The translations under genes and the position numbers were made by a program. The notes beneath the pieces were generated by a model. It was not told where the DNA came from, ran no database searches, and saw nothing but the letters and a program-made list of their open reading frames with translations. Positions 25,096-38,452 of a DNA stretch of 64,000 nt are shown here, piece by piece (within the stretch, counting starts at the first letter, position 1; every line of letters begins with the position of its first letter). This stretch comes from Candidatus Latescibacterota bacterium (GTDB lineage Bacteria > Latescibacterota > UBA2968 > GCA-2709665), in the NCBI GenBank assembly GCA_965226795.1, contig CBDDDZ010000004.1, positions 224,001 to 288,000 on the forward strand. The letters run 5' to 3'.

Positions 25096-27498
25096 CTATT
25101 TCAGGATTGCGATCGCCCCTGTCGGGATCTGCGTTTCGGCGCCATTGTGCGTCACCTGCGCCGGCGCCGTGCCCGTGTTTCTGGCCCACACCACGCCGGT
25201 CTCGGCGGCGTTGATTTCCAGCGCGCCCTCTGTGGTGATGTTCAGGATCGCTTCCTGCAGAAGGGCTTCGCCCGCCCCGAGGCTTCGCGCATAGGCGACA
25301 TTGTCGTCGTCCACGCAAGTAACGCCCCCGAAGATGGGAATCTCAGGGAATTCCGAGCGATTCGCCGTGAAGGTAAACGCACCGGCTTTTTCGCCGAAGT
25401 TCGCCACGGCCAGGTGATTGTCCGCGAGAAGGCCGATGGCGGGTCGTTCTGTTTGCATGATTACGTACTCGATGCCGGCCGTTTTGCTATGGGTGCGATC
25501 GGCGGCCACCAGCGCAGTGAGTTCGGAGATTGTGTTCCCGGAAGTTACCTGAACCGGCTCGTCGATGCGGCTTAGAATGAGGTCATCCGCCACGGCGCGC
25601 CAGACCTGGTAATAGTGCCGGTTGTGATAGGCGGTCTTGCCGGTGCCCGTGTAGACAATGCCCAGACGGTTGTCGACGTTGAGCCATGCCGGATGATCGT
25701 AGGTCTTGACGTCGTCGCTTTCCGGATCCCTCGTGACGAAACTCCTGAAGCGATCCGAACCGCCCGGCGTGTGGACGTTACGGTAGCCGTTGCAGTTTCC
25801 TTCCAGGGCGTTGAAGTCTTCGTTGACGATGCGAAGGAAACCCTGGTCGACACTATTGACGGTAATATTCTCTCTGGCCGTGAGCCGCTCACATGAAAGG
25901 GAAATACCGGAGGGCAGGCCCGCAAAGAGCACTTCCTGGCGTACCGATCGCTGGGCGCGGTTCAGGATCAGCGCGGCGGCAAAACCATCCTGATGTTCGT
26001 CCACGCGAATCGAGACCAGGTCGTGGCTGTCGGGTCTGTCCTGGACGTCAATGCTGGCCAGAAACGAATTTGATGCCGGCGCCACGGTATAGATGCCGTC
26101 CCTGTTCAGCGGAAGCGCCATAATGTCGTTGCGCCAGGAAAGAGAGGATTGGCCGGTCCGGTGCCGATGGAAGACAAAGCCGGATTGGGGATAGACCTTG
26201 ACGCCGCGCAGCTTGCGTTCGACTTGTGCACTGGTTGCGGGTTCAGGCCCGTCCCCAAAGATCCTGTGAAAGAAATAGGTGTGGGCGGGACTCACGATAT
26301 TGGTTTCCCGGATGATAAGCGGGTCCTGGGGACCATGCACAATTTCGGCGATTTGCTTCTCGTGCACGCGCCCGCCGGCGCTTTCCGCGCGCTGTTCCAG
26401 GGTCTCAAGCGCCTGGCGTTCGAAATACGCGGCGTCCGGGTCGTTCAGGAACTGGGCGGCCGTCGCATGAGTGAGCGTGCCCGGGTCGGGCGAGAGATAC
26501 GGCCAGTCCATGCCCTGCACGGGATGCATCGAGCCGGTCCGGTCCGTGGTACGTTTGAGCTGGTCGTAGATTTCCTGCCGGTTGAATAGGCCATGTTCCG
26601 GAACATCCGCGCCGAACGTCCCGTAGATGATGCCGAGCCGCCCCAGGAACATCACCGAACTGCCGGTGTAGCTGGGGTGCACCATGCCGTGGTTTTCGGC
26701 CATGTAGTCCGGCAACGCGGTAAAGGTCTGGCCGGTCAATTCCCGCACGGTCTGACCGTCTGAGAACGGCGCAAGGTTCTTCGTGTCCTGCTGGGTTGTG
26801 GCCGTGGAGAACATCCAGCGACGGGCTGTTTCGGCCCAGGATTTGACGTGGGGCGAGTTGCTCAGAAAACATTCAACCGATGCCAGGCCGCACGACGTCC
26901 AGCCGTTTTCCTCCATCTGCGTGTTGGTAAAAACGCCGCTCTTGGGCGCCATGGCTCCGAACCGCTCGGCGTAGTCCTCGTGCATGCGTGCAATCATCGT
27001 CCACGTCTCGTCGTCTACAATGTCGCCCAGCAAGAGGGCGACCAGGCCAACGTCGGAAAGATTCGTGCCGCACTGGCTCTCGGGGAAAAAACCCCGGCCG
27101 CGTTCGCCCCACTTGGTGCCCCAGGTCCTGGGATTGCCAAGGCTCTTTTCGGGCCGAATACAGTCAGCCGGACCCGTGTCGTGTGTATAGCAGAGGTAGC
27201 GGATGCCCTTGAGCGCAATCTCCCGGAGTTCCTTTTTGGAGCATCCGGTCCGTTTCTCGTCGTATTCAGGCGAATTTGCAAGCGCGGCAAATACGAAGGC
27301 CGGCGCGGCCGTGTCGCTGCCGTACCAGTGGGCCCCGCCGAAAAAATGCCCGCAATTGGGGCGGTCCGGCCAATCTTCGAAATAGTCAAGGCCAATTGGC
27401 ACCCAGTTTTCCAGGATGCGTTTATAACGCCTGCTCAGCGGGGTTTCCACGGCAGGCACGGACGTCCGCCGGCGGTTGGTCAATATTTCGGGTCGCAT
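25096..27498 (-). CDS. Large hypothetical protein, possibly polysaccharide lyase-like (alpha-toroid plus beta-sandwich)
   Basis: 800-aa ORF with AAGGAG RBS; helical N-half containing ENHGMVHPSY and a beta-rich C-half. The function is a guess. Confidence 0.75.
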   Translation of the reverse strand: MRPEILTNRRRTSVPAVETPLSRRYKRILENWVPIGLDYFEDWPDRPNCGHFFGGAHWYGSDTAAPAFVFAALANSPEYDEKRTGCSKKELREIALKGIRYLCYTHDTGPADCIRPEKSLGNPRTWGTKWGERGRGFFPESQCGTNLSDVGLVALLLGDIVDDETWTMIARMHEDYAERFGAMAPKSGVFTNTQMEENGWTSCGLASVECFLSNSPHVKSWAETARRWMFSTATTQQDTKNLAPFSDGQTVRELTGQTFTALPDYMAENHGMVHPSYTGSSVMFLGRLGIIYGTFGADVPEHGLFNRQEIYDQLKRTTDRTGSMHPVQGMDWPYLSPDPGTLTHATAAQFLNDPDAAYFERQALETLEQRAESAGGRVHEKQIAEIVHGPQDPLIIRETNIVSPAHTYFFHRIFGDGPEPATSAQVERKLRGVKVYPQSGFVFHRHRTGQSSLSWRNDIMALPLNRDGIYTVAPASNSFLASIDVQDRPDSHDLVSIRVDEHQDGFAAALILNRAQRSVRQEVLFAGLPSGISLSCERLTARENITVNSVDQGFLRIVNEDFNALEGNCNGYRNVHTPGGSDRFRSFVTRDPESDDVKTYDHPAWLNVDNRLGIVYTGTGKTAYHNRHYYQVWRAVADDLILSRIDEPVQVTSGNTISELTALVAADRTHSKTAGIEYVIMQTERPAIGLLADNHLAVANFGEKAGAFTFTANRSEFPEIPIFGGVTCVDDDNVAYARSLGAGEALLQEAILNITTEGALEINAAETGVVWARNTGTAPAQVTHNGAETQIPTGAIAILK

Positions 27499-27678: not shown

Positions 27679-28923
27679 CTATATTGGCACGTAGGGTCGT
27701 ACTGCTTCCATCTCCGAACAGTTTCTCACTAGGTTCGCTTGAACGCTTTGCAGCTTTGATTCGAGCTCAGCAATCGCCCGCTCGATCTGAGGAGATGCAC
27801 GAGGAACTGTGTCAAGGCGCGATGAAATTTCCGTTAGTGCTTCTCTTAGCTCACTCATCTCTGGGAGATCTGTTGCTTCACGCAGGTCATGAGCGCAAAA
27901 CGGACAGGCATGACTTTGTTCGGTCCCCTCAAAGATCTCGATCGACATCAGCCGAGCGCGTTGTTCGGATGCCTCACGCGAAAATCCAGACGTATCGTGT
28001 TCGAAGGCTTTAGCCGCGGCAATTTCATCTTGAAGTCTTCGCAACTGGCTGCGAAGTCGATTTCGTTCGTCGCTGAGCCGATGGTACTCTGCTTCGTCTG
28101 ATATCTCAATATCAATGGAAGTTCCGGGAGTCTCTGCGACTTCACGTAGGGCGGGTACCGCTTCCTCCCAAGTGCTTGCCAATGACGCAGACAGGCCGAC
28201 ATTACGTGCCTCAGCCAAAAGAGTCAATGCTTTCGTAACGCCTTCGCCCCTTAAAGACGAGAGTTCATTAAGCTGCCTTTCAGATTGACGCAGCCGCCTG
28301 CGGAGCCGCCTAAGCTGCTCGCGTTTGTTAATGTATTCGTCGTCCACAGCACCTAACAGATAAGGCAGTGTATCCCTCAGAGCTTGTGCGATGAAATTGT
28401 CCGCTGCTCCGTGAAATAGCTGTTGACGCCTGATAATCTCATCTTGCGGCTGAAAACAGAGCGCTAGGGCATGGCGAATAGTCACCGTTAGGGGTTGTCT
28501 GCTTTGACCTTGCGCGGGCTCATGGATATAATCTTTGATGCCACCCCAACTGGTGAGCAGCGCACCGAGTCCTCTCGTATTCGTCGTTTGTCGAAGACCA
28601 CTGTATTCAGGGATAACAACCTGGTCGCCGACGTCTACAAAACAATCCTCGCTCGAAGCGGCCGCAGGACCGGGACATCGACGAGCGATGAATGCTTCAC
28701 CGCTGGCCAGTTCCAACCTGAGTCCAAACCATGATACAGAGCGTCGAATCGGTCCTTCAGGAACTCGGCACTCGCCAGCACCAAAACAGTAGTCGACTAT
28801 ATCGACGAGCGCAGATTTTCCTGTTTTGGATGTGCCGGTAATGATGTTGACCTGACCCGGTTTGAGCGACAGTACGCGCTGTCGACCATCGTGGCTGTAC
28901 ACAACTATATCAAGAATCTGCAT
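27679..28923 (-). pseudogene. lmuB: Lamassu LmuB / ABC-3C SMC-like ATPase (DUF3732 family), C-terminally truncated
   Basis: N-terminal Walker A GTSKTGKS, FQPQDEI Q-loop, coiled coil and CPFC zinc hook. The ORF stops in mid coiled coil with no signature or Walker B half. Confidence 0.8.
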
Positions 28924-28925
28924 GG

Positions 28926-29423
28926 TTATGGACGCACCCCTATCAATGCGAAGACCGTTGATCCGCTACCAGTTTGCCCGAACCACTTGCCGACAAATTC
29001 TGCCTTGCGAGTACAAAGGCGTACCTCATCACTCGCTCCTTGCAACGAACGATTGAGAGTTAGCCGCAAGTCTTCATTGGCGCGGAGTTTGCCTTCGTCA
29101 ATGCTGATCAGGCCATGGGTTCCGCCAAAGAACATGCCTTCTTTAGTATATTCGACCAGTAGTTTCGCTCTAGTCGCAATCTTTCCTTGAGCGAGGGGAT
29201 TGTTATTGATCCATACAGCCAAAGACGTGCGAGTATCGCGTGGAAGCGCTTCCCTAGTTGTGCGGTGAAGTACCATCGGCAAGACCAGGAATGCTTCCTC
29301 GAAGGATAAGCCACGCAGGTTGATACTGGCATACCCGCGTGCAGCGCACCAGAGCAAGAGAGAACAGAACGCCGGGTTTAGGAGCGTTTGTTCCTCACGC
29401 GAGCGTTCATGCCATCGGGTCAT
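28926..29423 (-). CDS. lmuC: Lamassu LmuC / ABC three-component middle component (MC3/DUF6521-like)
   Basis: LLNPAF..LL, FLVLPMVLH..TR..LP motifs; ATGA overlap with the upstream effector. Confidence 0.82.
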   Translation of the reverse strand: MTRWHERSREEQTLLNPAFCSLLLWCAARGYASINLRGLSFEEAFLVLPMVLHRTTREALPRDTRTSLAVWINNNPLAQGKIATRAKLLVEYTKEGMFFGGTHGLISIDEGKLRANEDLRLTLNRSLQGASDEVRLCTRKAEFVGKWFGQTGSGSTVFALIGVRP

Positions 29424-30634
29424 GACGTCCCCATATTCGCGCCTAGTAGATGAGCGAGATGGCATTGAAAATCAATGTGCCAACCGACCCGTAGGTCATC
29501 GGATAACATGTGCAAGGAGCCGCGACTGACGAAAGGCTCAGTTACGTTGGGGCGGATTGGAAATAGCGTTTGTTCGGCCCATGCGAGAAGATTTCGGGCC
29601 GCGCCTTCTTTTGCGGTCTCGATCGCAGCCTCGCCGAGTTCATCACACATTGCATCGAATACGAGCTCCCACTCTTCTACAAGGCGCTTCTCATATTTGT
29701 GCAAATCCATATCGACCACTAGATCGTCACGCAACCAACGAGATCGTTGTTCGAATGCTCGGTAGTAGTCCCGAATGGCAGCTGCTATTCGGCGCCTTCC
29801 AGCTTTCGTAAGCTCGATCTGCCGGACAAATTTGTAATCCTCATGTGCTTCTCTCGTTGCCTCATCAAGCGAGAATTCTAAAAGATCATCATCTATAGGT
29901 AAAGCTTCTTGCTTAAACTGCTCACGAAGGTCCGACATCTGTGCTTCCAGTTCAATTGATCCGACACGGTCGGATGAAGCGTTCGCAAGTTGATGCAATA
30001 TTCGGTGGAACCACCAACCTTCCAGTCGCTGGAGAAATGCGAAATGGTGTTCCCTTCCCGCGGCCCAATAAACTTCCTGTTTAAGCTCGTTATCCAAATC
30101 TATGACGTTGGGAGCCGCATCAAACACAGTCACTCTACTCAAGATATCGATTTGTACGGATTGGTCGGAATCAAGAAAGACTTGGTAAGCCTTGGCATTC
30201 GCATTGTTCGTAGATGCTGTTGCTGTTGCTGTGAGTGTCTGCCGTGCGGCAGACACATCTCGCGGTCTAGCACGAAGATTCCAGGCCGCGCTTCCATCCG
30301 GTGCAGAAGAGGTGGTGACCAGATATAGATTAGTGCTCCCGGGAATTTTTCCTGACCGGTGACCCTCAAACCAGATGCGCAAGGTCTTCCATATATCTGG
30401 ACTGGCGTCGGTCAATGAGCCGACGCCCTTCTTGTGGTGTTTGGTCTGAAGCAGATCGGTAGGTTTGCCGCCCGTGGTTTCAAAGTTAACATCGTCGAGC
30501 GTCTCGATGCCAATCAAGAACCCGGGGTCCGTTTTTAGCCGTCTAAGCGTCCAGAACAATGCCAATCGGACTTGATAGAGATAGCCAAGCGTGGAATCGA
30601 CGGCGGAAAAATCGGATGTGCGTTTATCAGTCAC
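29420..30634 (-). CDS. lmuA: Lamassu LmuA effector: Cap4-like PD-(D/E)xK nuclease plus ABC-3C C-terminal domain
   Basis: SA..S.LGYLYQ, IETLDDV...LLQTKHH, DIWKTLRIW, F.QRLEGWW, FVRQIEL, RGSLHMLSD..VGWH. Confidence 0.82.
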   Translation of the reverse strand: MTDKRTSDFSAVDSTLGYLYQVRLALFWTLRRLKTDPGFLIGIETLDDVNFETTGGKPTDLLQTKHHKKGVGSLTDASPDIWKTLRIWFEGHRSGKIPGSTNLYLVTTSSAPDGSAAWNLRARPRDVSAARQTLTATATASTNNANAKAYQVFLDSDQSVQIDILSRVTVFDAAPNVIDLDNELKQEVYWAAGREHHFAFLQRLEGWWFHRILHQLANASSDRVGSIELEAQMSDLREQFKQEALPIDDDLLEFSLDEATREAHEDYKFVRQIELTKAGRRRIAAAIRDYYRAFEQRSRWLRDDLVVDMDLHKYEKRLVEEWELVFDAMCDELGEAAIETAKEGAARNLLAWAEQTLFPIRPNVTEPFVSRGSLHMLSDDLRVGWHIDFQCHLAHLLGANMGTS

Positions 30635-31021: not shown

Positions 31022-31441
31022 TCAGGTCTCCGAATTCCTTCCGAAGATCTTGTCGATTAATGACCTCCGCGAAAGTCGTTCCACGGCATTTCGAGTGATG
31101 CGGATATCCGACGAAAGCTCGTCCACGACACCGAGCTTTTCATTGATTCGAGCGAGCGCTTCCTCAATTGCCTGGAGCCTTTCGTCGACCTGCAACGGTT
31201 CGGAGCGTTGTAAGAGTTCGACGGTATTCTGGAACACTGAAAGGGCGCTATTTAGCGATTCAATTGCGTTTCTCGCCACAGACGCGAGTTCCGATATATT
31301 GTCGTTGGCTTCCGTCAGCCCTCTTCCTGCGTTCGCGAGTGACTGCTGGAGCTCATCGAATTGCTCGAGCCGCCGGACGACCTCGGCGGCGCGGCATTCG
31401 GTTTCACTGAGCCGTTCCTGCAGATCTTCCAATATGTCCAT
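31022..31441 (-). CDS. Small coiled-coil hypothetical protein
   Basis: 139 aa with heptad pattern; ATG immediately follows the RecQ-like stop (TAAATG). Confidence 0.75.
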   Translation of the reverse strand: MDILEDLQERLSETECRAAEVVRRLEQFDELQQSLANAGRGLTEANDNISELASVARNAIESLNSALSVFQNTVELLQRSEPLQVDERLQAIEEALARINEKLGVVDELSSDIRITRNAVERLSRRSLIDKIFGRNSET

Positions 31442-34225
31442 TTACGCTCCCATTGCCTTTGCCACGCCGGACGCCTCATACTGCCGTGCGACCCGGTCAG
31501 AAACCATTTCCAACCGATTGAATACATTGCGAACGCTTCGCGTCGCAATCACGGCGCGGACCCGAGGGTCATCGAGTTCAACCGCGCGCTGAAATGCCCT
31601 TGTCTCCACGTATTCGAAACCCGGCGACGTATCAGCAAGGTCGAGCAGCGCGAGTGTGAGGGGCGGACCAAGATCCTGCGCACGGGTTGACGCGAGGTTG
31701 AACATCTCGTCAATCGTCGACTCGATATCTGCCTGCGAGATCTCGTACTTCTCCACACCGATGCGGATTGCCGCACCGATTCCCTGCGAACTGACAATCT
31801 CATCGTGATCCGAACACATGGACTCGGACAACGCGCGCGCCAATAGAAGGCCCGGGTGGTCCGGGTCGGATTCGAGCGCGCGAATGCACAGCCCACGAAG
31901 CTCTCCCGCGTCCATCGCTGACTGCACTTTGGAAACAAGATCCCACCACGCGGCCAACTCGACATTCTCACTCTGTAACAGGCTTTCGATGTGCTCGGCG
32001 CCAAAGCCCTCCTGGAGGTAGTCGAGCAGCCGCACCCGGATCTCCGCGTCGTCTCGCGCCTGACGGGCGAGCAGCAGGGCTTCGCGGATCATCCCCCGCC
32101 GCGACCGTTCCACGAGGTCGTAGGTAAATTCGATCAGTATGGCGGCAAGTTCAAGCGCCGCGTCGCGCGGCCGACCGGTGTCAATCCTGTTCACGCTTCG
32201 GACGAGCGACTTGCTCTTTCCGGGTTGCGCGGAGCGAACGTATTCAAGCAGACGTTCCTTGCAGCGGTTGAAGTCGAACGCGTCCACGTGAATCACAAAC
32301 CTACCCGATCCGAAGTCGACCTCATAGTCGTCAATCACGCCAAGCCTGAGCAGCCGGTAGACTGCTTTCTCCTCTCGGAGGCGGTTGCGGCCGTCTCCAT
32401 AGGGTCGTTCAATTCGCTTTCTCGAAGAGAGATCGCCCAGCGCATTCAAAAGATCGGATACATTATCGATTTCGCGCGCCGCTCCACTGAACGCCTGCAG
32501 GTGAAACCACAATGCCCGGGTAAGGTCATCCGCAGTTTGGCGATTTCCTTCAATTTCTTCAAACCTGCTGCGAAGGGCCTCGAGATCAAGGTCGGGATCA
32601 ATCAGTTCCCCGGAGCGATCCGGGTCGTATTCCGAAAACACGACCGTCGCGCGCGCGAGTTTTCGGTCTCGCCCCGCGCGGCCGGCCTCCTGGTAGAAGC
32701 TCTCGAGGGACATGGGCATTCCGAAATGCACGGTATATCGGATATTCGGTTTGTCGATCCCCATCCCGAATGCCTTTGTGGCAACGAGCACGGGCACGCG
32801 ATTAGCTTTGAAGTCGGCCGCGTTCTCGCGTTTCTGCGCATGCCATTTGTCGGCATCCAGGGACGCGGGCGGGTTGCCGGAGTATATGGTGACGTCCGCA
32901 CCCATTGCCTGCTCCACGATACTGCGTGCATCCTGCACGCCGTAGGTACGGGCCTTGACCGTGGGAACGAATACGATACCCGAAGCCGTTTCGGCGCCAG
33001 ACGACCGATAGAACTCCGCCCGTGGCAACCCGAATTTACCGGGCAATGCGTTCAGTACGCCCCGCAGTGCCGCCGAGGGTTCTTGGACCGGGGAGGTGCG
33101 TACGATTTCAAAGCGAATTTCGGAACGGTCGAACGACTCGGGGCGGATCAACGCGTCCGATCGGTTCCTGTCTATACCTAAATCGGCAAGCATATCCCGA
33201 AGGACCGCGCGCGAGGCGGTTCCGTTCAGGGCCAGGAGCGGCGGCGGACGAAATTCACGGTCCGCGCCGAGCCTCCTCAGGTTGTTCGCGAGATTCAGAT
33301 ACGCAGGCCGGAAGTCGTGCCCCCACTCCGATACGCAGTGCGCTTCATCGACGACTGCAAGGTTGATAAACGCACACTCCACAAGCGCACGGAGCGCCGT
33401 CCGAAATTTAGGCGACTGAAGCCGTTCGGGCGCATGAAGCACGAACAGGTACTCGCCTCGTTCCACCCGTCGGAGCAGACGCTCGCGCTCTTCGCGGTCG
33501 GCAAGTTGGCTGGTAATTGAAGCCGCCCGATCGATTCCGTAGGACCTCAGACCCTCGACCTGGTCTTCAATCAACGCAGTTATGGGATCGACCACCAGCG
33601 TTACGCCAGGCATCAGGAGCCCGGCGAGTTGGTAGATAATACTCTTGCCTCCGCCGGTCTGCAGCAGCACAACGCTGTCGTTCTGTCTCAGCACATTGAA
33701 GATGGCCTGCCCCTGCATCGGGCGAAAATCCCGTTTGCGAAATATGTTTCGGAGGAACATCCTGAGCGGCGCGCGAGCTTCTTCGTAGGTCGTCACCACC
33801 GCGGCCCGTCGGCGCAAGTCGAACGACTGCCCGGCCGCGATCAATGCCGGGATGTACACCGGGCGAATGACGAAATCCAGCCCTTTGCCACGGACGCATT
33901 GAAACGGGCTCGTTGTGGACTCGACGGCAATGGTCAACCGGTACACGGGTGCGTCGAAAACGGTGGTCTTCACCCACCGCCCGCCGCCGTCGCGCATCCA
34001 GGTCCTGACGAACCCGTTATCCGCGCGTACTGTACATCGGGTTGGGACCGAACAGCCGCCATACAGAATATCGATGCCTGCCAGTAACCGAAACGCGTCC
34101 AGCACGCCGGCAGCGGCAGTGGCGCCGTCCCCCCTGATATCGATCTCCCAGCTTTCGCCCGGCGTCAGCCACCCATACTCCAGCGCGCGGGCGACCACGA
34201 ACTGCACCCTGGCCCCCTGGCGCAA
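31442..34225 (-). CDS. RecQ-family SF2 helicase (C-terminal part of a frameshifted fusion)
   Basis: FRPMQ, TGGGKS, APERL, VVDEAHCVSEWGHDFRPAY, VATKAFGMGIDKPNIR, YQEAGRAGRD; long helical C-terminus with no evident HRDC. Confidence 0.9.
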   Translation of the reverse strand: MRQGARVQFVVARALEYGWLTPGESWEIDIRGDGATAAAGVLDAFRLLAGIDILYGGCSVPTRCTVRADNGFVRTWMRDGGGRWVKTTVFDAPVYRLTIAVESTTSPFQCVRGKGLDFVIRPVYIPALIAAGQSFDLRRRAAVVTTYEEARAPLRMFLRNIFRKRDFRPMQGQAIFNVLRQNDSVVLLQTGGGKSIIYQLAGLLMPGVTLVVDPITALIEDQVEGLRSYGIDRAASITSQLADREERERLLRRVERGEYLFVLHAPERLQSPKFRTALRALVECAFINLAVVDEAHCVSEWGHDFRPAYLNLANNLRRLGADREFRPPPLLALNGTASRAVLRDMLADLGIDRNRSDALIRPESFDRSEIRFEIVRTSPVQEPSAALRGVLNALPGKFGLPRAEFYRSSGAETASGIVFVPTVKARTYGVQDARSIVEQAMGADVTIYSGNPPASLDADKWHAQKRENAADFKANRVPVLVATKAFGMGIDKPNIRYTVHFGMPMSLESFYQEAGRAGRDRKLARATVVFSEYDPDRSGELIDPDLDLEALRSRFEEIEGNRQTADDLTRALWFHLQAFSGAAREIDNVSDLLNALGDLSSRKRIERPYGDGRNRLREEKAVYRLLRLGVIDDYEVDFGSGRFVIHVDAFDFNRCKERLLEYVRSAQPGKSKSLVRSVNRIDTGRPRDAALELAAILIEFTYDLVERSRRGMIREALLLARQARDDAEIRVRLLDYLQEGFGAEHIESLLQSENVELAAWWDLVSKVQSAMDAGELRGLCIRALESDPDHPGLLLARALSESMCSDHDEIVSSQGIGAAIRIGVEKYEISQADIESTIDEMFNLASTRAQDLGPPLTLALLDLADTSPGFEYVETRAFQRAVELDDPRVRAVIATRSVRNVFNRLEMVSDRVARQYEASGVAKAMGA

Positions 34226-35301
34226 TCAACGGCGAGCGACGCGAAAGCCCTCTCCTCGCCGGTAGCCCTGGCGAATACGGTGAGTACCCTTTGGCATCGA
34301 ACTCGAATCTTTTCGAGCATCGCTCCCCGGCCATTCAGCACTTCCGCGTTGGTGATGCGCAGAACGTCAATCCCGATTGAACGCAATGATTCATCGCGCG
34401 CTTTGTCCACCTCAATCGATCCTTCGTGTTCAGGACCGTCGATCTCTATGGCGAAAGGCGATCCACCGGGGTGGCTGAAGAGAAAGTCGACGCGACGGGC
34501 GCCGCTCCCGTATTCCCCTGCAGACTCGACCAGCCTGTCCAGCGGCGCCTGCGGGATAAACCAGTGGCCGGCTGCAGTCCCGAGCGCCGTGGGCACCCAT
34601 TGATTCAGAAACCAGGCTTCGGCCTGGCTCTGCAGCAGCGATTGGTCTGAACCGGGATCGAAGTCGAAAGCAGGGTCGAGAATGAAGGGGACTTTTTCGG
34701 TTAACTTCGAAAGGACGACTTCGTCTGTCAAACGCAGCGACGCACCGGGCTGTGGCGCCCAACCGACATCAGCGACATCCTCGCAGAATTCGCTTACCCG
34801 ATCCAGTAAACCGTGCGTGCGCAGCCCCTCGCGTTCAACATCCAGCGTCGCCAGGGGCGTATGGCCGCGACGCAGCAACTTGATAAGCAACGCGGTAGCG
34901 AAGCGGACGTGCTCAACCGCCTCTCCGCGCTCACGGCTTCTGGACGAGAGCACCACGCACTGGCTGAGGGCCCGTGTCAAACGCGCATTCTGGCCGAGCG
35001 TGTCTCTAAAGACTCCCGGCCTTGCGCCTACCGATACGTACTCGGGGATGAAATCCGCGCGGCGCACGCCTTCGATCCATTCCACCGGAAGCAAGGCGTC
35101 GGGTGACACGCGGGCCTTGCGGAAAGGTTCAGCCGGCTCCGATTTATCCCTAACATTCCGCGTACCTCGACACCTGGGAAATTTTGTACAGCCCCAGAAC
35201 TGCTCTCCTGGGTTTCGTCCTTTCTTCGCCGTGCGAAGCGCCATTGAGGCACCGCAGGACGGACACCGTGGTGATTCAGACTGGGAGATCGAACTGTTCA
35301 T
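34165..35301 (-). CDS. Topoisomerase-type C4 Zn-ribbon plus DUF559/Vsr-like endonuclease (N-terminal part of a frameshifted fusion)
   Basis: CPSCGASM...FWGCTKFPRCRG; RRVDFLF...AIEIDGPEH...DKARDESLRSIGIDVLRITN. Confidence 0.85.
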   Translation of the reverse strand: MNSSISQSESPRCPSCGASMALRTAKKGRNPGEQFWGCTKFPRCRGTRNVRDKSEPAEPFRKARVSPDALLPVEWIEGVRRADFIPEYVSVGARPGVFRDTLGQNARLTRALSQCVVLSSRSRERGEAVEHVRFATALLIKLLRRGHTPLATLDVEREGLRTHGLLDRVSEFCEDVADVGWAPQPGASLRLTDEVVLSKLTEKVPFILDPAFDFDPGSDQSLLQSQAEAWFLNQWVPTALGTAAGHWFIPQAPLDRLVESAGEYGSGARRVDFLFSHPGGSPFAIEIDGPEHEGSIEVDKARDESLRSIGIDVLRITNAEVLNGRGAMLEKIRVRCQRVLTVFARATGEERAFASLAVDCARGPGCSSWSPARWSMGG

Positions 35302-35340
35302 TTCAGTTTTCGTGCGGAGGCAACGGAATAGACCGGTGGA

Positions 35341-36009
35341 TCAATATCCGGGGACGTGTGTTTTCCCGCCGATCCAATCGATCATGGCGCCAAATGTTGG
35401 ACAATGCTCCGCGATGTCGTGAAGGTCTGCGTTTCTCAGGATGGCTTCGCCATCCGTAATTTCTCGATAGGATCGCTTGAGATGTCTCTTGAAGAGTTCT
35501 TCGACGATTCTCTTCGGTGGTCTTTCTTGATTCTGTTTTTCGGGCGGTCGTTGCCAGCTTCCGGGTTCGTTCGACATGTTTAGGCGGGACCGAAGTTGAC
35601 TCGTCGCCGCGAGGAGCAGCACTTCCATGTCATGTTTCATCGCGCTTGCATAAAATCGCGCTAAATGACTGTCCACATCGGCACCTCGCACACCTTGCCC
35701 TTCCAATCCGTTTCGTACAAGCCGGGTTTGCAAGTCGCGTAGATCTCTTACCCTTTCCTGCCTCTGTTCCGTATTTGCGAATTCTCGATTCGGGTAAAAA
35801 TCCGGTAAACCTACGGCCACATCGCATTCGTCGTGAACCAATTTCTCCGCTACTTTGTCCCCGATTTTCTTTAGATATTTCGGCTTGTTGTCAAGCGATA
35901 TTAATTTAACCCCCCAACCTTTGTCTCCAAGTTTTCGCCTCCACCCGCCCCACAACGCCTCCAATGCCCCAACGTCAGACCTCCCCTCCACAAACACCCA
36001 GACCTTCAT
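35341..36009 (-). CDS. DUF4276 / TOPRIM-like protein
   Basis: N-terminal VWVFVEGRSD (TOPRIM Glu), later D.YP, DMEVLLLA and PEKQN; ATGA overlap with the ATPase. Confidence 0.8.
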   Translation of the reverse strand: MKVWVFVEGRSDVGALEALWGGWRRKLGDKGWGVKLISLDNKPKYLKKIGDKVAEKLVHDECDVAVGLPDFYPNREFANTEQRQERVRDLRDLQTRLVRNGLEGQGVRGADVDSHLARFYASAMKHDMEVLLLAATSQLRSRLNMSNEPGSWQRPPEKQNQERPPKRIVEELFKRHLKRSYREITDGEAILRNADLHDIAEHCPTFGAMIDWIGGKTHVPGY

Positions 36010-37298
36010 GCGCCGGCCTCCAGTTCGCCGGAGCGGTGGAGATCGCCAAGGGTTTCGCCTGTAACATTGTTAAGCATCTCCACAAGCGTCTTCCGGTTCG
36101 CCGGACGATGCCATACGACCTTTGCATTATCCGAATCGCGAGCCATCACGGCTACATCGGCAATATCGAAACAGTTGAGCAGATCCGGGCTGTGCGTCGT
36201 CACCAGCACCTGGGTGCGCTCAGCTGCCGTCTTGATCAATTCAGCGACAATCGGCAACAGGCCGGGATGCAAGCCCAATTCGGGTTCGTCGATTGCAATT
36301 AGCAGCGGAGGCTGCGGATTCAACAGCGCTGTCGCCAGACAGAGAAACCGAAGCATACCGTCCGAAAGATCCCAGAGATTCATTGACCGCGACATTCCCT
36401 TTTCGCGCACCCCAACAAGCACTTGCGGCGGCGATCCAAAGGTCGTATCACAATGGATTTCCTCGAACGCGGGAAAGGCTGCACGCAGAAACTCCCGCAA
36501 TTCCTCTGCTGCCGACCGGTAGTCATACCGGGTCAGTATTTCGTGCAGCACGGTGCCCAAATTCTCAGCGTTCGGCGCCAGTATCGCATCGCGCTTGATT
36601 TCGGCGGCCTTAGTGCGGAGTTCGGAAGACCGTGTCACATCGAAACCGGGATAGAACGCCATATTCGCCAATCGAACGCGTACCATAGCTGGAACGGGAT
36701 AATCGTTAAAGAATTTGATCTCTGAAAGGAGCAACGCCTGCCCAAGCTGAGTAGGTTGCGGCGCACCGCCCTGCGATTTCGATTCTACGGAATCGGCCTC
36801 GCGGACGGCATCAGGTTCTGATTGCGATTCGTCAAACGGTACAAATCTACCTTTATTTCTGTCGAACAAGTGCCGCCGATAGGGAGTGGACTCCAGAAAC
36901 TTGAGGGGGTTGGCGTATCCCTTTCTAGGTCTTTGAGTCCTGAGAACCTCGTATTGCGGGCGGATCTGGCCGTATGGATCGGCCTTAAGTTCAACCTCGT
37001 ACACGAGGAGTTCCCCTCGCTCAACTAACACTACATCCCAACTTGCAGGTAGGCGAAAGGTGATTTTCCAAGTCAATGAATTGTTCTCGTTACGCGAGGT
37101 TAGAATGGACGCCGCTCCATAGTGCCAACCAAACACGGTATCCAGCGGAAAGCCGCAACATTCTGCGATCAGTTGATGACAATCAATCAGGGTACTCTTG
37201 CCAGTTGCATTTGCCCCGATCACAACGGTCAGTTGCTTGAGGTCCGCTTTGAAATCGTCGAGAAGCCGGTAACCTCCAATTTCGATTTCCGTAATCAT
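36006..37298 (-). CDS. ABC-type (AAA_21 / COG4637-like) ATPase
   Basis: Walker A GANATGKST, signature LSDGMLRFL, Walker B/D-loop IDEPELGLHP, H-loop VTTHSP. Confidence 0.92.
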   Translation of the reverse strand: MITEIEIGGYRLLDDFKADLKQLTVVIGANATGKSTLIDCHQLIAECCGFPLDTVFGWHYGAASILTSRNENNSLTWKITFRLPASWDVVLVERGELLVYEVELKADPYGQIRPQYEVLRTQRPRKGYANPLKFLESTPYRRHLFDRNKGRFVPFDESQSEPDAVREADSVESKSQGGAPQPTQLGQALLLSEIKFFNDYPVPAMVRVRLANMAFYPGFDVTRSSELRTKAAEIKRDAILAPNAENLGTVLHEILTRYDYRSAAEELREFLRAAFPAFEEIHCDTTFGSPPQVLVGVREKGMSRSMNLWDLSDGMLRFLCLATALLNPQPPLLIAIDEPELGLHPGLLPIVAELIKTAAERTQVLVTTHSPDLLNCFDIADVAVMARDSDNAKVVWHRPANRKTLVEMLNNVTGETLGDLHRSGELEAGA

Positions 37299-37528: not shown

Positions 37529-38266
37529 CTACTCGACCGCGAACAGCCGGTTGCGAGCCGGCAGGCCGACGATCTTCGAGAAGTGGTGAATCTGCAGATC
37601 TGGGTGGCGGGAATCGACGGGAGTTGGCGCTTCGACCACGAAATCGGCGAAGTGGGGGGTATTGAAGGCCACGAAGGCGAGCGAGAGGCAGTCGACCAGC
37701 CGATCTGCCCGCGCCGACAGGTCGGGAAAGGCCAGCGGGCCGGTGTCGACCTGGTAGCGGTCGTCCTCGCGGCGGGTGTTCATCGTCTTCACCGGACATT
37801 CGATCAGGGCCCTGAGTCCGGTTTCATCGTTGCGGATTTCGGTCTGCGAGACCAGCGGCGCGAAGCGATACGTTTCCTCGCGGATGGACGCGTTCGACGG
37901 CAACTCGCGAATGCTCTCGCCCTCGACGAGGTTGAGGTCGTAGCCACCGAACATCTCCGCGTACGGCCGCGTTTCCCGGTAGCGGGCGCTGAGATAGGCG
38001 GGACGCCGGAAGATGAGACCATACCTGGCGCTGAAGATCGGCAGGAAATCGTAGTTGTCACGTTGAAACAGATCCCTTTCATGGAAGGTGTTCTCGCTCT
38101 TGCAGGAGGCGGTCTGGTAGAAATCTTCGCAGATCCCCTCCCTTTCGTCCAAAATTCGGGTGCGCGACTCGATCCAGAAACGCGCCTCGTTGGTCCGCCC
38201 CTTCCCGATCAGGAACGAGCGGCCGTAGTCGAGCGGAGTCACGGTCAAAAGAGCAACGTCATTCAT
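37529..38266 (-). CDS. Conserved-looking hypothetical protein
   Basis: ATG at 38266 after GGAGG; PLDYGRSF, ASCKSENTF, IECPVKTMN, YQVDTGP; strong host-like codon bias. Confidence 0.75.
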   Translation of the reverse strand: MNDVALLTVTPLDYGRSFLIGKGRTNEARFWIESRTRILDEREGICEDFYQTASCKSENTFHERDLFQRDNYDFLPIFSARYGLIFRRPAYLSARYRETRPYAEMFGGYDLNLVEGESIRELPSNASIREETYRFAPLVSQTEIRNDETGLRALIECPVKTMNTRREDDRYQVDTGPLAFPDLSARADRLVDCLSLAFVAFNTPHFADFVVEAPTPVDSRHPDLQIHHFSKIVGLPARNRLFAVE

Positions 38267-38290
38267 TGGAAATCCTCCAGACGCGAAAAC

Positions 38291-38316
38291 AAAAAAGCCG
38301 TCGCACACTCGACGGT
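38291..38316 (-). terminator. Terminator or attenuator hairpin
   Basis: Minus strand CCGTCG-AGTGTG-CGACGG-C-T6. Confidence 0.55.
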
Positions 38317-38452
38317 TACCGATCCAAAACACAAAAACCCCGCACATCAAACGCTCCCGCAGGGTATCCCGAGGTTTAACCCCAATCCCTTGGAACTTCC
38401 TCTGTAGCTGCGATACTTTCGGTTAACCTAATAGCAGGTTCCGGCGGGCAAT

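Follow-up and report, generated by a model that had tools for sequence, protein, structure and literature searches.

HEC-01 (Hma-embedded candidate 01; Payne et al., bioRxiv 10.1101/2024.01.29.577857) comprises an ABC ATPase and a TOPRIM protein, and gave no protection in the authors' assay. Hhe (bioRxiv 10.1101/2022.06.16.496414) is a single-gene system in which a helicase is combined with a Vsr endonuclease, and defense requires a nuclease residue at position 1731. In Zorya (bioRxiv 10.1101/2023.12.18.572097) a coiled-coil tail signals to soluble DNA-binding and nuclease parts, and both Zorya and SNIPE (bioRxiv 10.1101/2025.11.03.685801) use the membrane to target phage DNA. We have analyzed a stretch of 64,000 nucleotides (the window) from a Candidatus Latescibacterota bacterium (contig CBDDDZ010000004.1, positions 224,001 to 288,000), and within it four consecutive genes that encode an ABC ATPase and a DUF4276 protein (module 1), followed by a fusion of a DUF559 nuclease with a RecQ-family helicase and a small coiled-coil partner (module 2). 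On balance we favor the view that the locus consists of a HEC-01-type cassette and an unnamed nuclease-helicase that is likely tethered by its partner to the inner membrane face and would there be directed against incoming foreign DNA.

The four genes very probably form two independent two-gene cassettes, and not one four-gene system. In a survey using profiles built from close homologues, the ATPase/DUF4276 pair lies upstream of the fusion at 6 of the 31 loci having at least 2.2 kb of upstream sequence. All six belong to the clade of the window, with none at the 25 other loci. At L086 and L114 there are AAA_21 proteins near the fusion, but no DUF4276 in a Pfam scan. Four genomes (G102, G167, G168 and G169) carry an intact fusion pair with no match to DUF4276 (0/4), and in G107 DUF4276 and the fusion are both present, 2.3 Mb apart. 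Looking from the other side, DUF4276 is matched in 29 of 168 genomes of the phylum, and in 19 of them, which belong to genera g11 and g25, neither end of the fusion is matched. The ATPase is directly upstream of DUF4276 in all 18 that were inspected of these 19, and at the 11 loci where about 5 kb of flank is available on each side, fusion and partner are absent. The trees of the ATPase and the fusion reject each other (approximately unbiased test, p <1e-50, seven shared taxa), and the topology of the fusion tree is that of the flanking host gene (seven-row trees). A preliminary description of this DNA had left the choice between one sensor-effector system and two adjacent two-gene systems; two systems are supported, the single four-gene system being rejected on distribution and trees. 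The co-occurrence with the fusion that it raised holds for the coiled-coil gene (below), and not for the ATPase/DUF4276 pair outside the window's clade. Shared transcription of the two modules is plausible, but a shared mechanism is not needed.

Module 1 appears to be a member of a catalogued candidate family, with HEC-01 as its best match; the supplementary tables of the HEC paper, which may bear on membership of HEC-01, lay outside our literature search. Of 118 PADLOC matches of the ATPase the six best are all HEC-01A (best 4e-54), and all three PADLOC matches of the DUF4276 protein are HEC-01B, although these are weak (1e-7 to 3e-5). In this part the proposal of an undescribed operon did not stand, whereas it stands for the fusion, which matches no named system. 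The Walker A, signature, Walker B and H-loop motifs of the ATPase are intact, and conserved in 25 aligned copies. The DUF4276 protein likewise has acidic residues that are conserved in an alignment of 25 copies, and these are candidates for an OLD-like metal-binding site. The ATPase would be a sensor that switches on its TOPRIM nuclease. When compared with the related genome G056, synonymous divergence (dS) is 1.15 for the ATPase gene and 0.25-0.40 for the flanking genes, DUF4276, fusion and partner; at four-fold sites the values are 0.51 and 0.21-0.28. Because its dS is far above that of its neighbors, DUF4276 included, the ATPase alone seems to have been exchanged. That a HEC-01 ATPase can be replaced next to a retained TOPRIM partner suggests that specificity resides in the ATPase.

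The nuclease-helicase of module 2 belongs to a substantial family. Its N-terminal profile finds 121 clusters at 50% identity (E ≤1e-30, fragments included), and nearly all of the 120 relatives listed, at 56-95% identity, have both DUF559 and the helicase. Residues D210, E224, D226, H230, D237 and R240 of the DUF559 domain (model numbering) are invariant in 60 diverse rows of the alignment, as are the catalytic residues of the helicase, and the nuclease domain matches PDB 3hrl (5e-5). The helicase core scores 234.6 bits against TIGR00614, above the cut-off of 219.8. An AlphaFold model of the intact fusion of G056 (residues 63-1262) has a predicted local distance difference test score (pLDDT) of 89.7 and a predicted template modeling score of 0.89, and the modeled tail, to residue 1262, is entirely helical. 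Its best structural match is RecQL4 (5lst; Z 28.2, root-mean-square deviation 3.1, 483 aligned residues). Fold searches with the whole model returned RecQ cores only, the core filling the lists and the other domains being barely tested. The tail has no Pfam match, its profile found no PDB sequence below E 0.1, and an ESM Atlas search gave a best score of 0.78 with no usable lead. There are no conserved cysteines after the helicase core in the fusion alignment. At L046:2100-7394 the fusion is found within an open frame of 1764 residues, about 470 longer at the N-terminus, and the additional part has no Pfam match at E 1e-9.

The fusion/partner pair meets no cut-off for a defense family in PADLOC or NCBIfam. 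Phosphoribosyltransferase (PRTase) and Hhe families are absent among the matches of P0001, an intact relative of the fusion, at E 0.01 in NCBIfam (17 families) and E 1e-5 in PADLOC (20 families). Viral contigs gave 120 pattern matches, none of them a relative of the fusion. No publication was found on RecQ with DUF559, or on RecQ with a membrane-anchored anti-phage nuclease, in a search that subscription papers and bioRxiv supplements lay outside. With no print record found and no library cut-off met, module 2 is unnamed, and known parts have been recombined in a new way.

The partner gene is a constant companion of the fusion. We compared 12 genome loci and the best 80 of at least 116 metagenome loci, leaving out L042 and L043, which lack the tail; merging at 90% identity gave 74. 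The partner follows the fusion at 73 of the 74, within 150 nucleotides at 70, and the single locus without it offers only 323 bases of room. The partner profile, which was iterated on the same 74 loci that it was counted in, has no match elsewhere among 3978 open reading frames. This agrees with the earlier proposal of a dedicated small partner, but the predicted membrane anchor of the partner family had been missed. By a simple Kyte-Doolittle rule, a hydrophobic C-terminal helix, predicted to be transmembrane, is present in 52 of 71 complete partners. Within the clade of the window a short basic-hydrophobic end lies at the place of the transmembrane helix of the relatives in the alignment, and this segment may be an amphipathic membrane anchor. 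MinD is anchored to the membrane by a C-terminal amphipathic segment, which we presume the end of the partner to resemble. The model of the window's partner consists of three long helices (pLDDT 79). Across the family the two N-terminal helices and the kink are conserved, and the length of the stalk varies. Prediction of a complex between fusion residues 352-1225 and partner residues 1-122, thus excluding the N-terminal 351 residues of the fusion, gave a score of 0.00 and no answer. At three loci (L088:5459-6142, L083:6059-6862 and also L075) fusion and partner are separated by an inserted gene whose product has a hydrophobic segment at the N-terminus and an RNase_H_2 exonuclease domain. This is possibly a three-gene subtype with a second, putatively membrane-bound nuclease.

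How would such a module work? The RecQ motor would load on single-stranded or forked DNA and feed the Vsr-like domain. Docking of the enzyme would fall to the conserved helical hairpin at the N-terminus of the partner, and the stalk of variable length and the tail would place it at the membrane. Location, and not sequence, would then separate invader from chromosome, and the tethered enzyme would unwind and cut incoming foreign DNA at the inner membrane face. We think it probable that module 2 acts against foreign DNA. That it acts by membrane-localized cutting, as analogy with other systems suggests, is put forward more tentatively. The most far-reaching reading, which we regard as doubtful in its full form, takes module 2 for a widespread immune system. 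A coiled-coil stalk anchored by its tail would hold the RecQ motor and the Vsr-like nuclease at the membrane, where entering DNA is caught and shredded; the anchor would have been swapped between transmembrane and amphipathic helices, and in this genus the system would have been coupled behind an exchangeable ABC sensor cassette. If true, foreign DNA would be selected by location in a new manner, through a motor-driven nuclease mounted on a stalk at the membrane; few defense systems are known to go by place, as opposed to sequence or methylation. The intact copies of module 2 in close relatives make this directly testable.

The insertion site was examined in 14 sister genomes. Six have the full arrangement, two are cut by a contig end, five are empty and one has a PDC-S06 ATPase broken by an insertion sequence (IS), together with putAbiC. 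Other cargo at the site comprises Lamassu (G056), PDC-S06, putAbiC, and TIR and 8xMP genes (G046), and because this cargo is of defense type we regard the site as a defense hot spot. In G046 (L022:12577-14462) two TIR genes, each standing alone, come after the gene for an 8xMP membrane protein, and no PADLOC system is matched strongly. Elsewhere module 2 is found next to or near genes for BrxL, McrBC, R.HinP1I, SoFic, a TmtA-like protein, AbiE and type I methylases, with a clear defense neighbor at 7 of the 26 loci that have 4 kb or more of flanking sequence. We counted type I methylase, SoFic, type II restriction-modification, TmtA-like, AbiE and BrxL genes by PADLOC and McrBC by Pfam, excluding generic kinases, UvrD and AAA proteins; 100 of 220 neighbors were run against PADLOC after housekeeping genes and short open reading frames had been dropped. 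A PD-(D/E)XK (PDDEXK_1) nuclease gene directly adjoins module 2 at L076, L084 and L089. The copies of the 3' end of the upstream 273-residue gene at L022:7729-7804 and L023:9217-9278 flank an ATPase-DUF4276-putAbiC block, resembling an integration scar. Both conserved flanking genes (window 25096-27498, 800 residues, and 37529-38350, 273 residues) lack a Pfam match, and the 800-residue protein has three paralogues in the genome.

The window's own copy of module 2 is probably nonfunctional, since a frameshift ends translation beyond the nuclease domain. One base splits the fusion into open reading frames of 378 and 927 residues. The intact relative P0001 (91-94% identical) aligns to the window's fusion in two frames. 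Relatives carry a single frame of about 1290-1310 residues, and in ten from the phylum the frame that stays open across this point measures 1192-1477 residues. Over 33302-34883 the contigs from runs X1 and X2 align to the window without gaps, so that two other assemblies have the frameshift, whereas contigs from runs X4 and X11 of other studies have one extra base at the site. A private assembly slip is therefore weakened as an explanation, with the proviso that X1 and X2 are one sample and possibly the window's own source. As background, an alignment to G056 of 141.5 kb with open reading frames masked has at most 11 frameshift-like indels, including one duplicate row and likely misalignments. 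The window also has asparagine in helicase motif III (33224-33226), where threonine is invariant in the 60-row alignment; this arises from a base difference at 33225, and the X1 and X2 contigs carry the threonine base. The Lamassu system next door, which the preliminary description had noted, is present but broken: lmuB encodes 414 residues compared with 646 in G056, with about 1 kb missing. The ratio of nonsynonymous to synonymous divergence (dN/dS) relative to G056 is 0.11-0.32 for all eight genes measured, the four cassette genes among them, and for this reason we regard the decay of module 2 and Lamassu as recent. The Lamassu DNA of the window and G056 (window 27679-30634; L019:14405-18056) is 98% identical (dS 0.04) and the flanks 92-95%; since it is more alike than the flanks, it has been transferred recently between species. 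In G056 an IS1380 element sits between the partner gene and lmuA.

Several observations weigh against a HEC-01-type cassette beside a membrane-tethered defense nuclease. HEC-01 was without protection in the sole test that we found. The preliminary description had looked to defense islands, and the hot spot at the window's own site accords with this; over the other loci, however, defense neighbors are not significantly enriched, at 7 of 26 compared with 3 of 18 in control windows (Fisher p 0.49). The controls were 9-kb windows placed at even intervals in G056, of which 18 remained when 2 of 20 had been left out for their size; this genome is itself defense-rich, and the windows are longer than the locus flanks. 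In one control window (L180:6188-16037) CBASS genes lie within a defense island, flanked by an RmrA-like gene and an HmaB-like methylase gene. Many module 2 loci lie among housekeeping genes, and within the genus the fusion follows the host phylogeny, as a stably inherited gene would. With respect to the anchor, 19 of the 71 complete partners, that of the window among them, fall below the transmembrane threshold, and the last segment of the window's partner is not among its six highest windows of hydrophobic moment. Finally, 6 of the 14 sister genomes retain the order of the four genes, and a homologous spacer of 36-40 bp between DUF4276 and the fusion occurs in five other genomes, in one of them (G040) at a different site. 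For these last two reasons the block has traveled or persisted as a unit.

Such persistence, together with the tight co-oriented junctions, would be expected if in this lineage all four genes formed a single sensor-effector system, with infection sensed by the ABC ATPase, which would then activate both the TOPRIM protein and the tethered nuclease-helicase. We consider this improbable. Each pair is common without the other and the ATPase and fusion trees disagree, the modules are separated by a putAbiC gene and a repeat of 62-76 bp from the 3' end of the upstream gene in two of the six order-keeping genomes (G046 and G055), and in G040 module 1 is retained but the fusion is down to a stub of 104 residues. 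The main rival concerns module 2 alone, as an abortive system of toxin-antitoxin type in which an auto-toxic nuclease-helicase is kept at the membrane by the partner, as the RecQ-like RqlH is restrained by RqlI, and release of the enzyme on disturbance of the envelope by infection would kill the cell. The near-obligate pairing and translational coupling of fusion and partner are consistent with this. RqlH is toxic without RqlI and binds it (PMC4670107), and PsyrTA/RqlHI defends against phage (bioRxiv 10.1101/2022.05.11.491447). Frameshifting the enzyme gene while the partner stays intact would moreover be a safe way of losing such a pair. But the toxicity of RqlH comes from its PRTase domain, and RqlI is DprA-like, and neither family is found in the module 2 proteins; a variable stalk and anchor would also resemble a spacer more than an inhibitor. 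We think this rival unlikely. Nor do we give much weight to module 2 being an accessory helicase-nuclease for DNA repair or DNA uptake at the membrane, and not defense. RecQ cores and Vsr-like folds are repair modules, and the lack of significant neighbor enrichment and the vertical inheritance of the fusion within the genus fit such a role. So does the search for other RecQ proteins: the window genome's only other RecQ-family match above the cut-off (L014; G000:C5:83426-84451) is in an open frame of 1765 residues, and no RecQ of ordinary size was found with TIGR00614. Against it, the fusion is patchy, its tail being found in 13 of the 168 phylum genomes, it is absent from the site in 6 of the 14 sister genomes, one of which has other defense cargo there, and it is broken in the window and reduced to a stub in G040.

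The features of the locus are collected in Table 1. Four co-oriented open reading frames had been described, and all are on the minus strand at the positions given there. The stop codon of the ATPase gene and the start of DUF4276 overlap as ATGA, a gap of 39 bp (35302-35340) follows DUF4276, and fusion and partner are joined as TAAATG, indicating translational coupling; each of these junctions had been reported and is read in the sequence. The domains claimed were all found with Pfam: AAA_21 (3e-30), DUF4276 (4e-16), Zn_ribbon_Top1 (8e-9), DUF559 (2e-8), DEAD (2e-17) and Helicase_C (7e-14). A scan for promoters and terminators gave no more signals than chance. All four genes are covered in part by RNA-library contigs of relatives, which are no proof of transcription. 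One metagenome run containing this stretch is labeled sponge metagenome, and the close relatives are mostly Candidatus Latescibacterota. The locus shows how unrelated cassettes join into an apparent operon. What is new is the evidence for a composite nature of the four-gene operon, the apparent exchange of the ATPase and the non-transmembrane tail of the partner in this clade.

Table 1. Positions of the two modules, their parts and the neighboring Lamassu system in the window.
Feature	Positions	Strand	Description
ABC ATPase gene (module 1, gene A)	36006..37298	-	430 aa; HEC-01A type; Pfam AAA_21, PADLOC
DUF4276 gene (module 1, gene B)	35341..36009	-	222 aa; TOPRIM-like predicted nuclease, HEC-01B type
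Fusion gene (module 2, gene A)	31442..35301	-	Zn ribbon/DUF559 nuclease/RecQ-family helicase/winged-helix-like segment and all-helical tail; ~1290 aa if intact; frameshifted here
Coiled-coil partner gene (module 2, gene B)	31022..31441	-	139 aa, three-helix
Topoisomerase-type C4 zinc ribbon of fusion	35149..35265	-	PF01396 8e-9, residues 13-51
DUF559 (Vsr-like) nuclease domain of fusion	34294..34515	-	PF04480 2e-8, PF18741 1e-5
One-base frameshift of fusion gene, between nuclease and helicase halves	34214..34222	-	Frame change relative to intact relatives
RecQ-family helicase core of fusion (Walker A, DEAH)	32600..33754	-	TIGR00614
Family-specific C-terminal part of fusion: winged-helix-like segment and long helical tail, no HRDC	31445..32599	-	Secondary structure of model
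Short basic-hydrophobic C-terminal segment of partner	31037..31063	-	Transmembrane helix at equivalent place in most relatives
Lamassu neighbor, outside both modules	27679..30634	-	lmuA 30634-29420, lmuC 29465-28926, lmuB 28923-27679 (truncated); PADLOC LmuA, LmuC, LmuB

We may now compare the two modules with the systems that they most resemble. Like HEC-01, module 1 has two genes, an ABC ATPase and an adjacent TOPRIM-like gene, with HEC-01A and HEC-01B as the best profiles, but it is not embedded in an Hma system and the HEC-01B match is weak (1e-7). The fusion of module 2 was held in the preliminary description not to be a housekeeping RecQ and to lack HRDC, and both points are borne out. 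Its core is above the TIGR00614 cut-off, and structural matches to the RecQ family (E. coli RecQ 1oyw; human RecQL4 5lst) cover that core only. It is distant from RecQ proper, with 266 bits against a TIGR01389 cut-off of 640, no Pfam match to HRDC or RQC at E 0.01, and about 500 extra residues at the N-terminus and 250 at the C-terminus. It is below the cut-off for DpdF as well (149 bits against 550, NF041063), and no Dpd genes adjoin it in the window.

PsyrTA and RqlHI (PMC4670107; bioRxiv 10.1101/2022.05.11.491447) similarly combine a RecQ-like helicase and an effector domain in one protein and encode a dedicated partner in the same operon, and PADLOC PsyrT matches the helicase core of the fusion (2e-63, best stretch 495-694). 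The effector, however, is an N-terminal DUF559 nuclease in place of the C-terminal PRTase of RqlH, and the coiled-coil partner, for whose family a membrane tail is predicted, has no match to PsyrA or DprA, whereas RqlI is DprA-like. With Hhe the fusion shares a helicase and a Vsr-type nuclease in one chain, but its nuclease precedes the RecQ core, while the catalytic residue of Hhe is at position 1731, and no partner of Hhe is described in the accessible part of that source. Two partners have faint matches to ZorA (E 0.003, far below the cut-off), as expected of coiled coils. Module 2 has no motor or peptidoglycan-binding gene, and no homology to SNIPE or Zorya is shown. What it would have in common with both is a location at the membrane directed against phage DNA, as predicted for module 2 from the sequence of the partner's tail.

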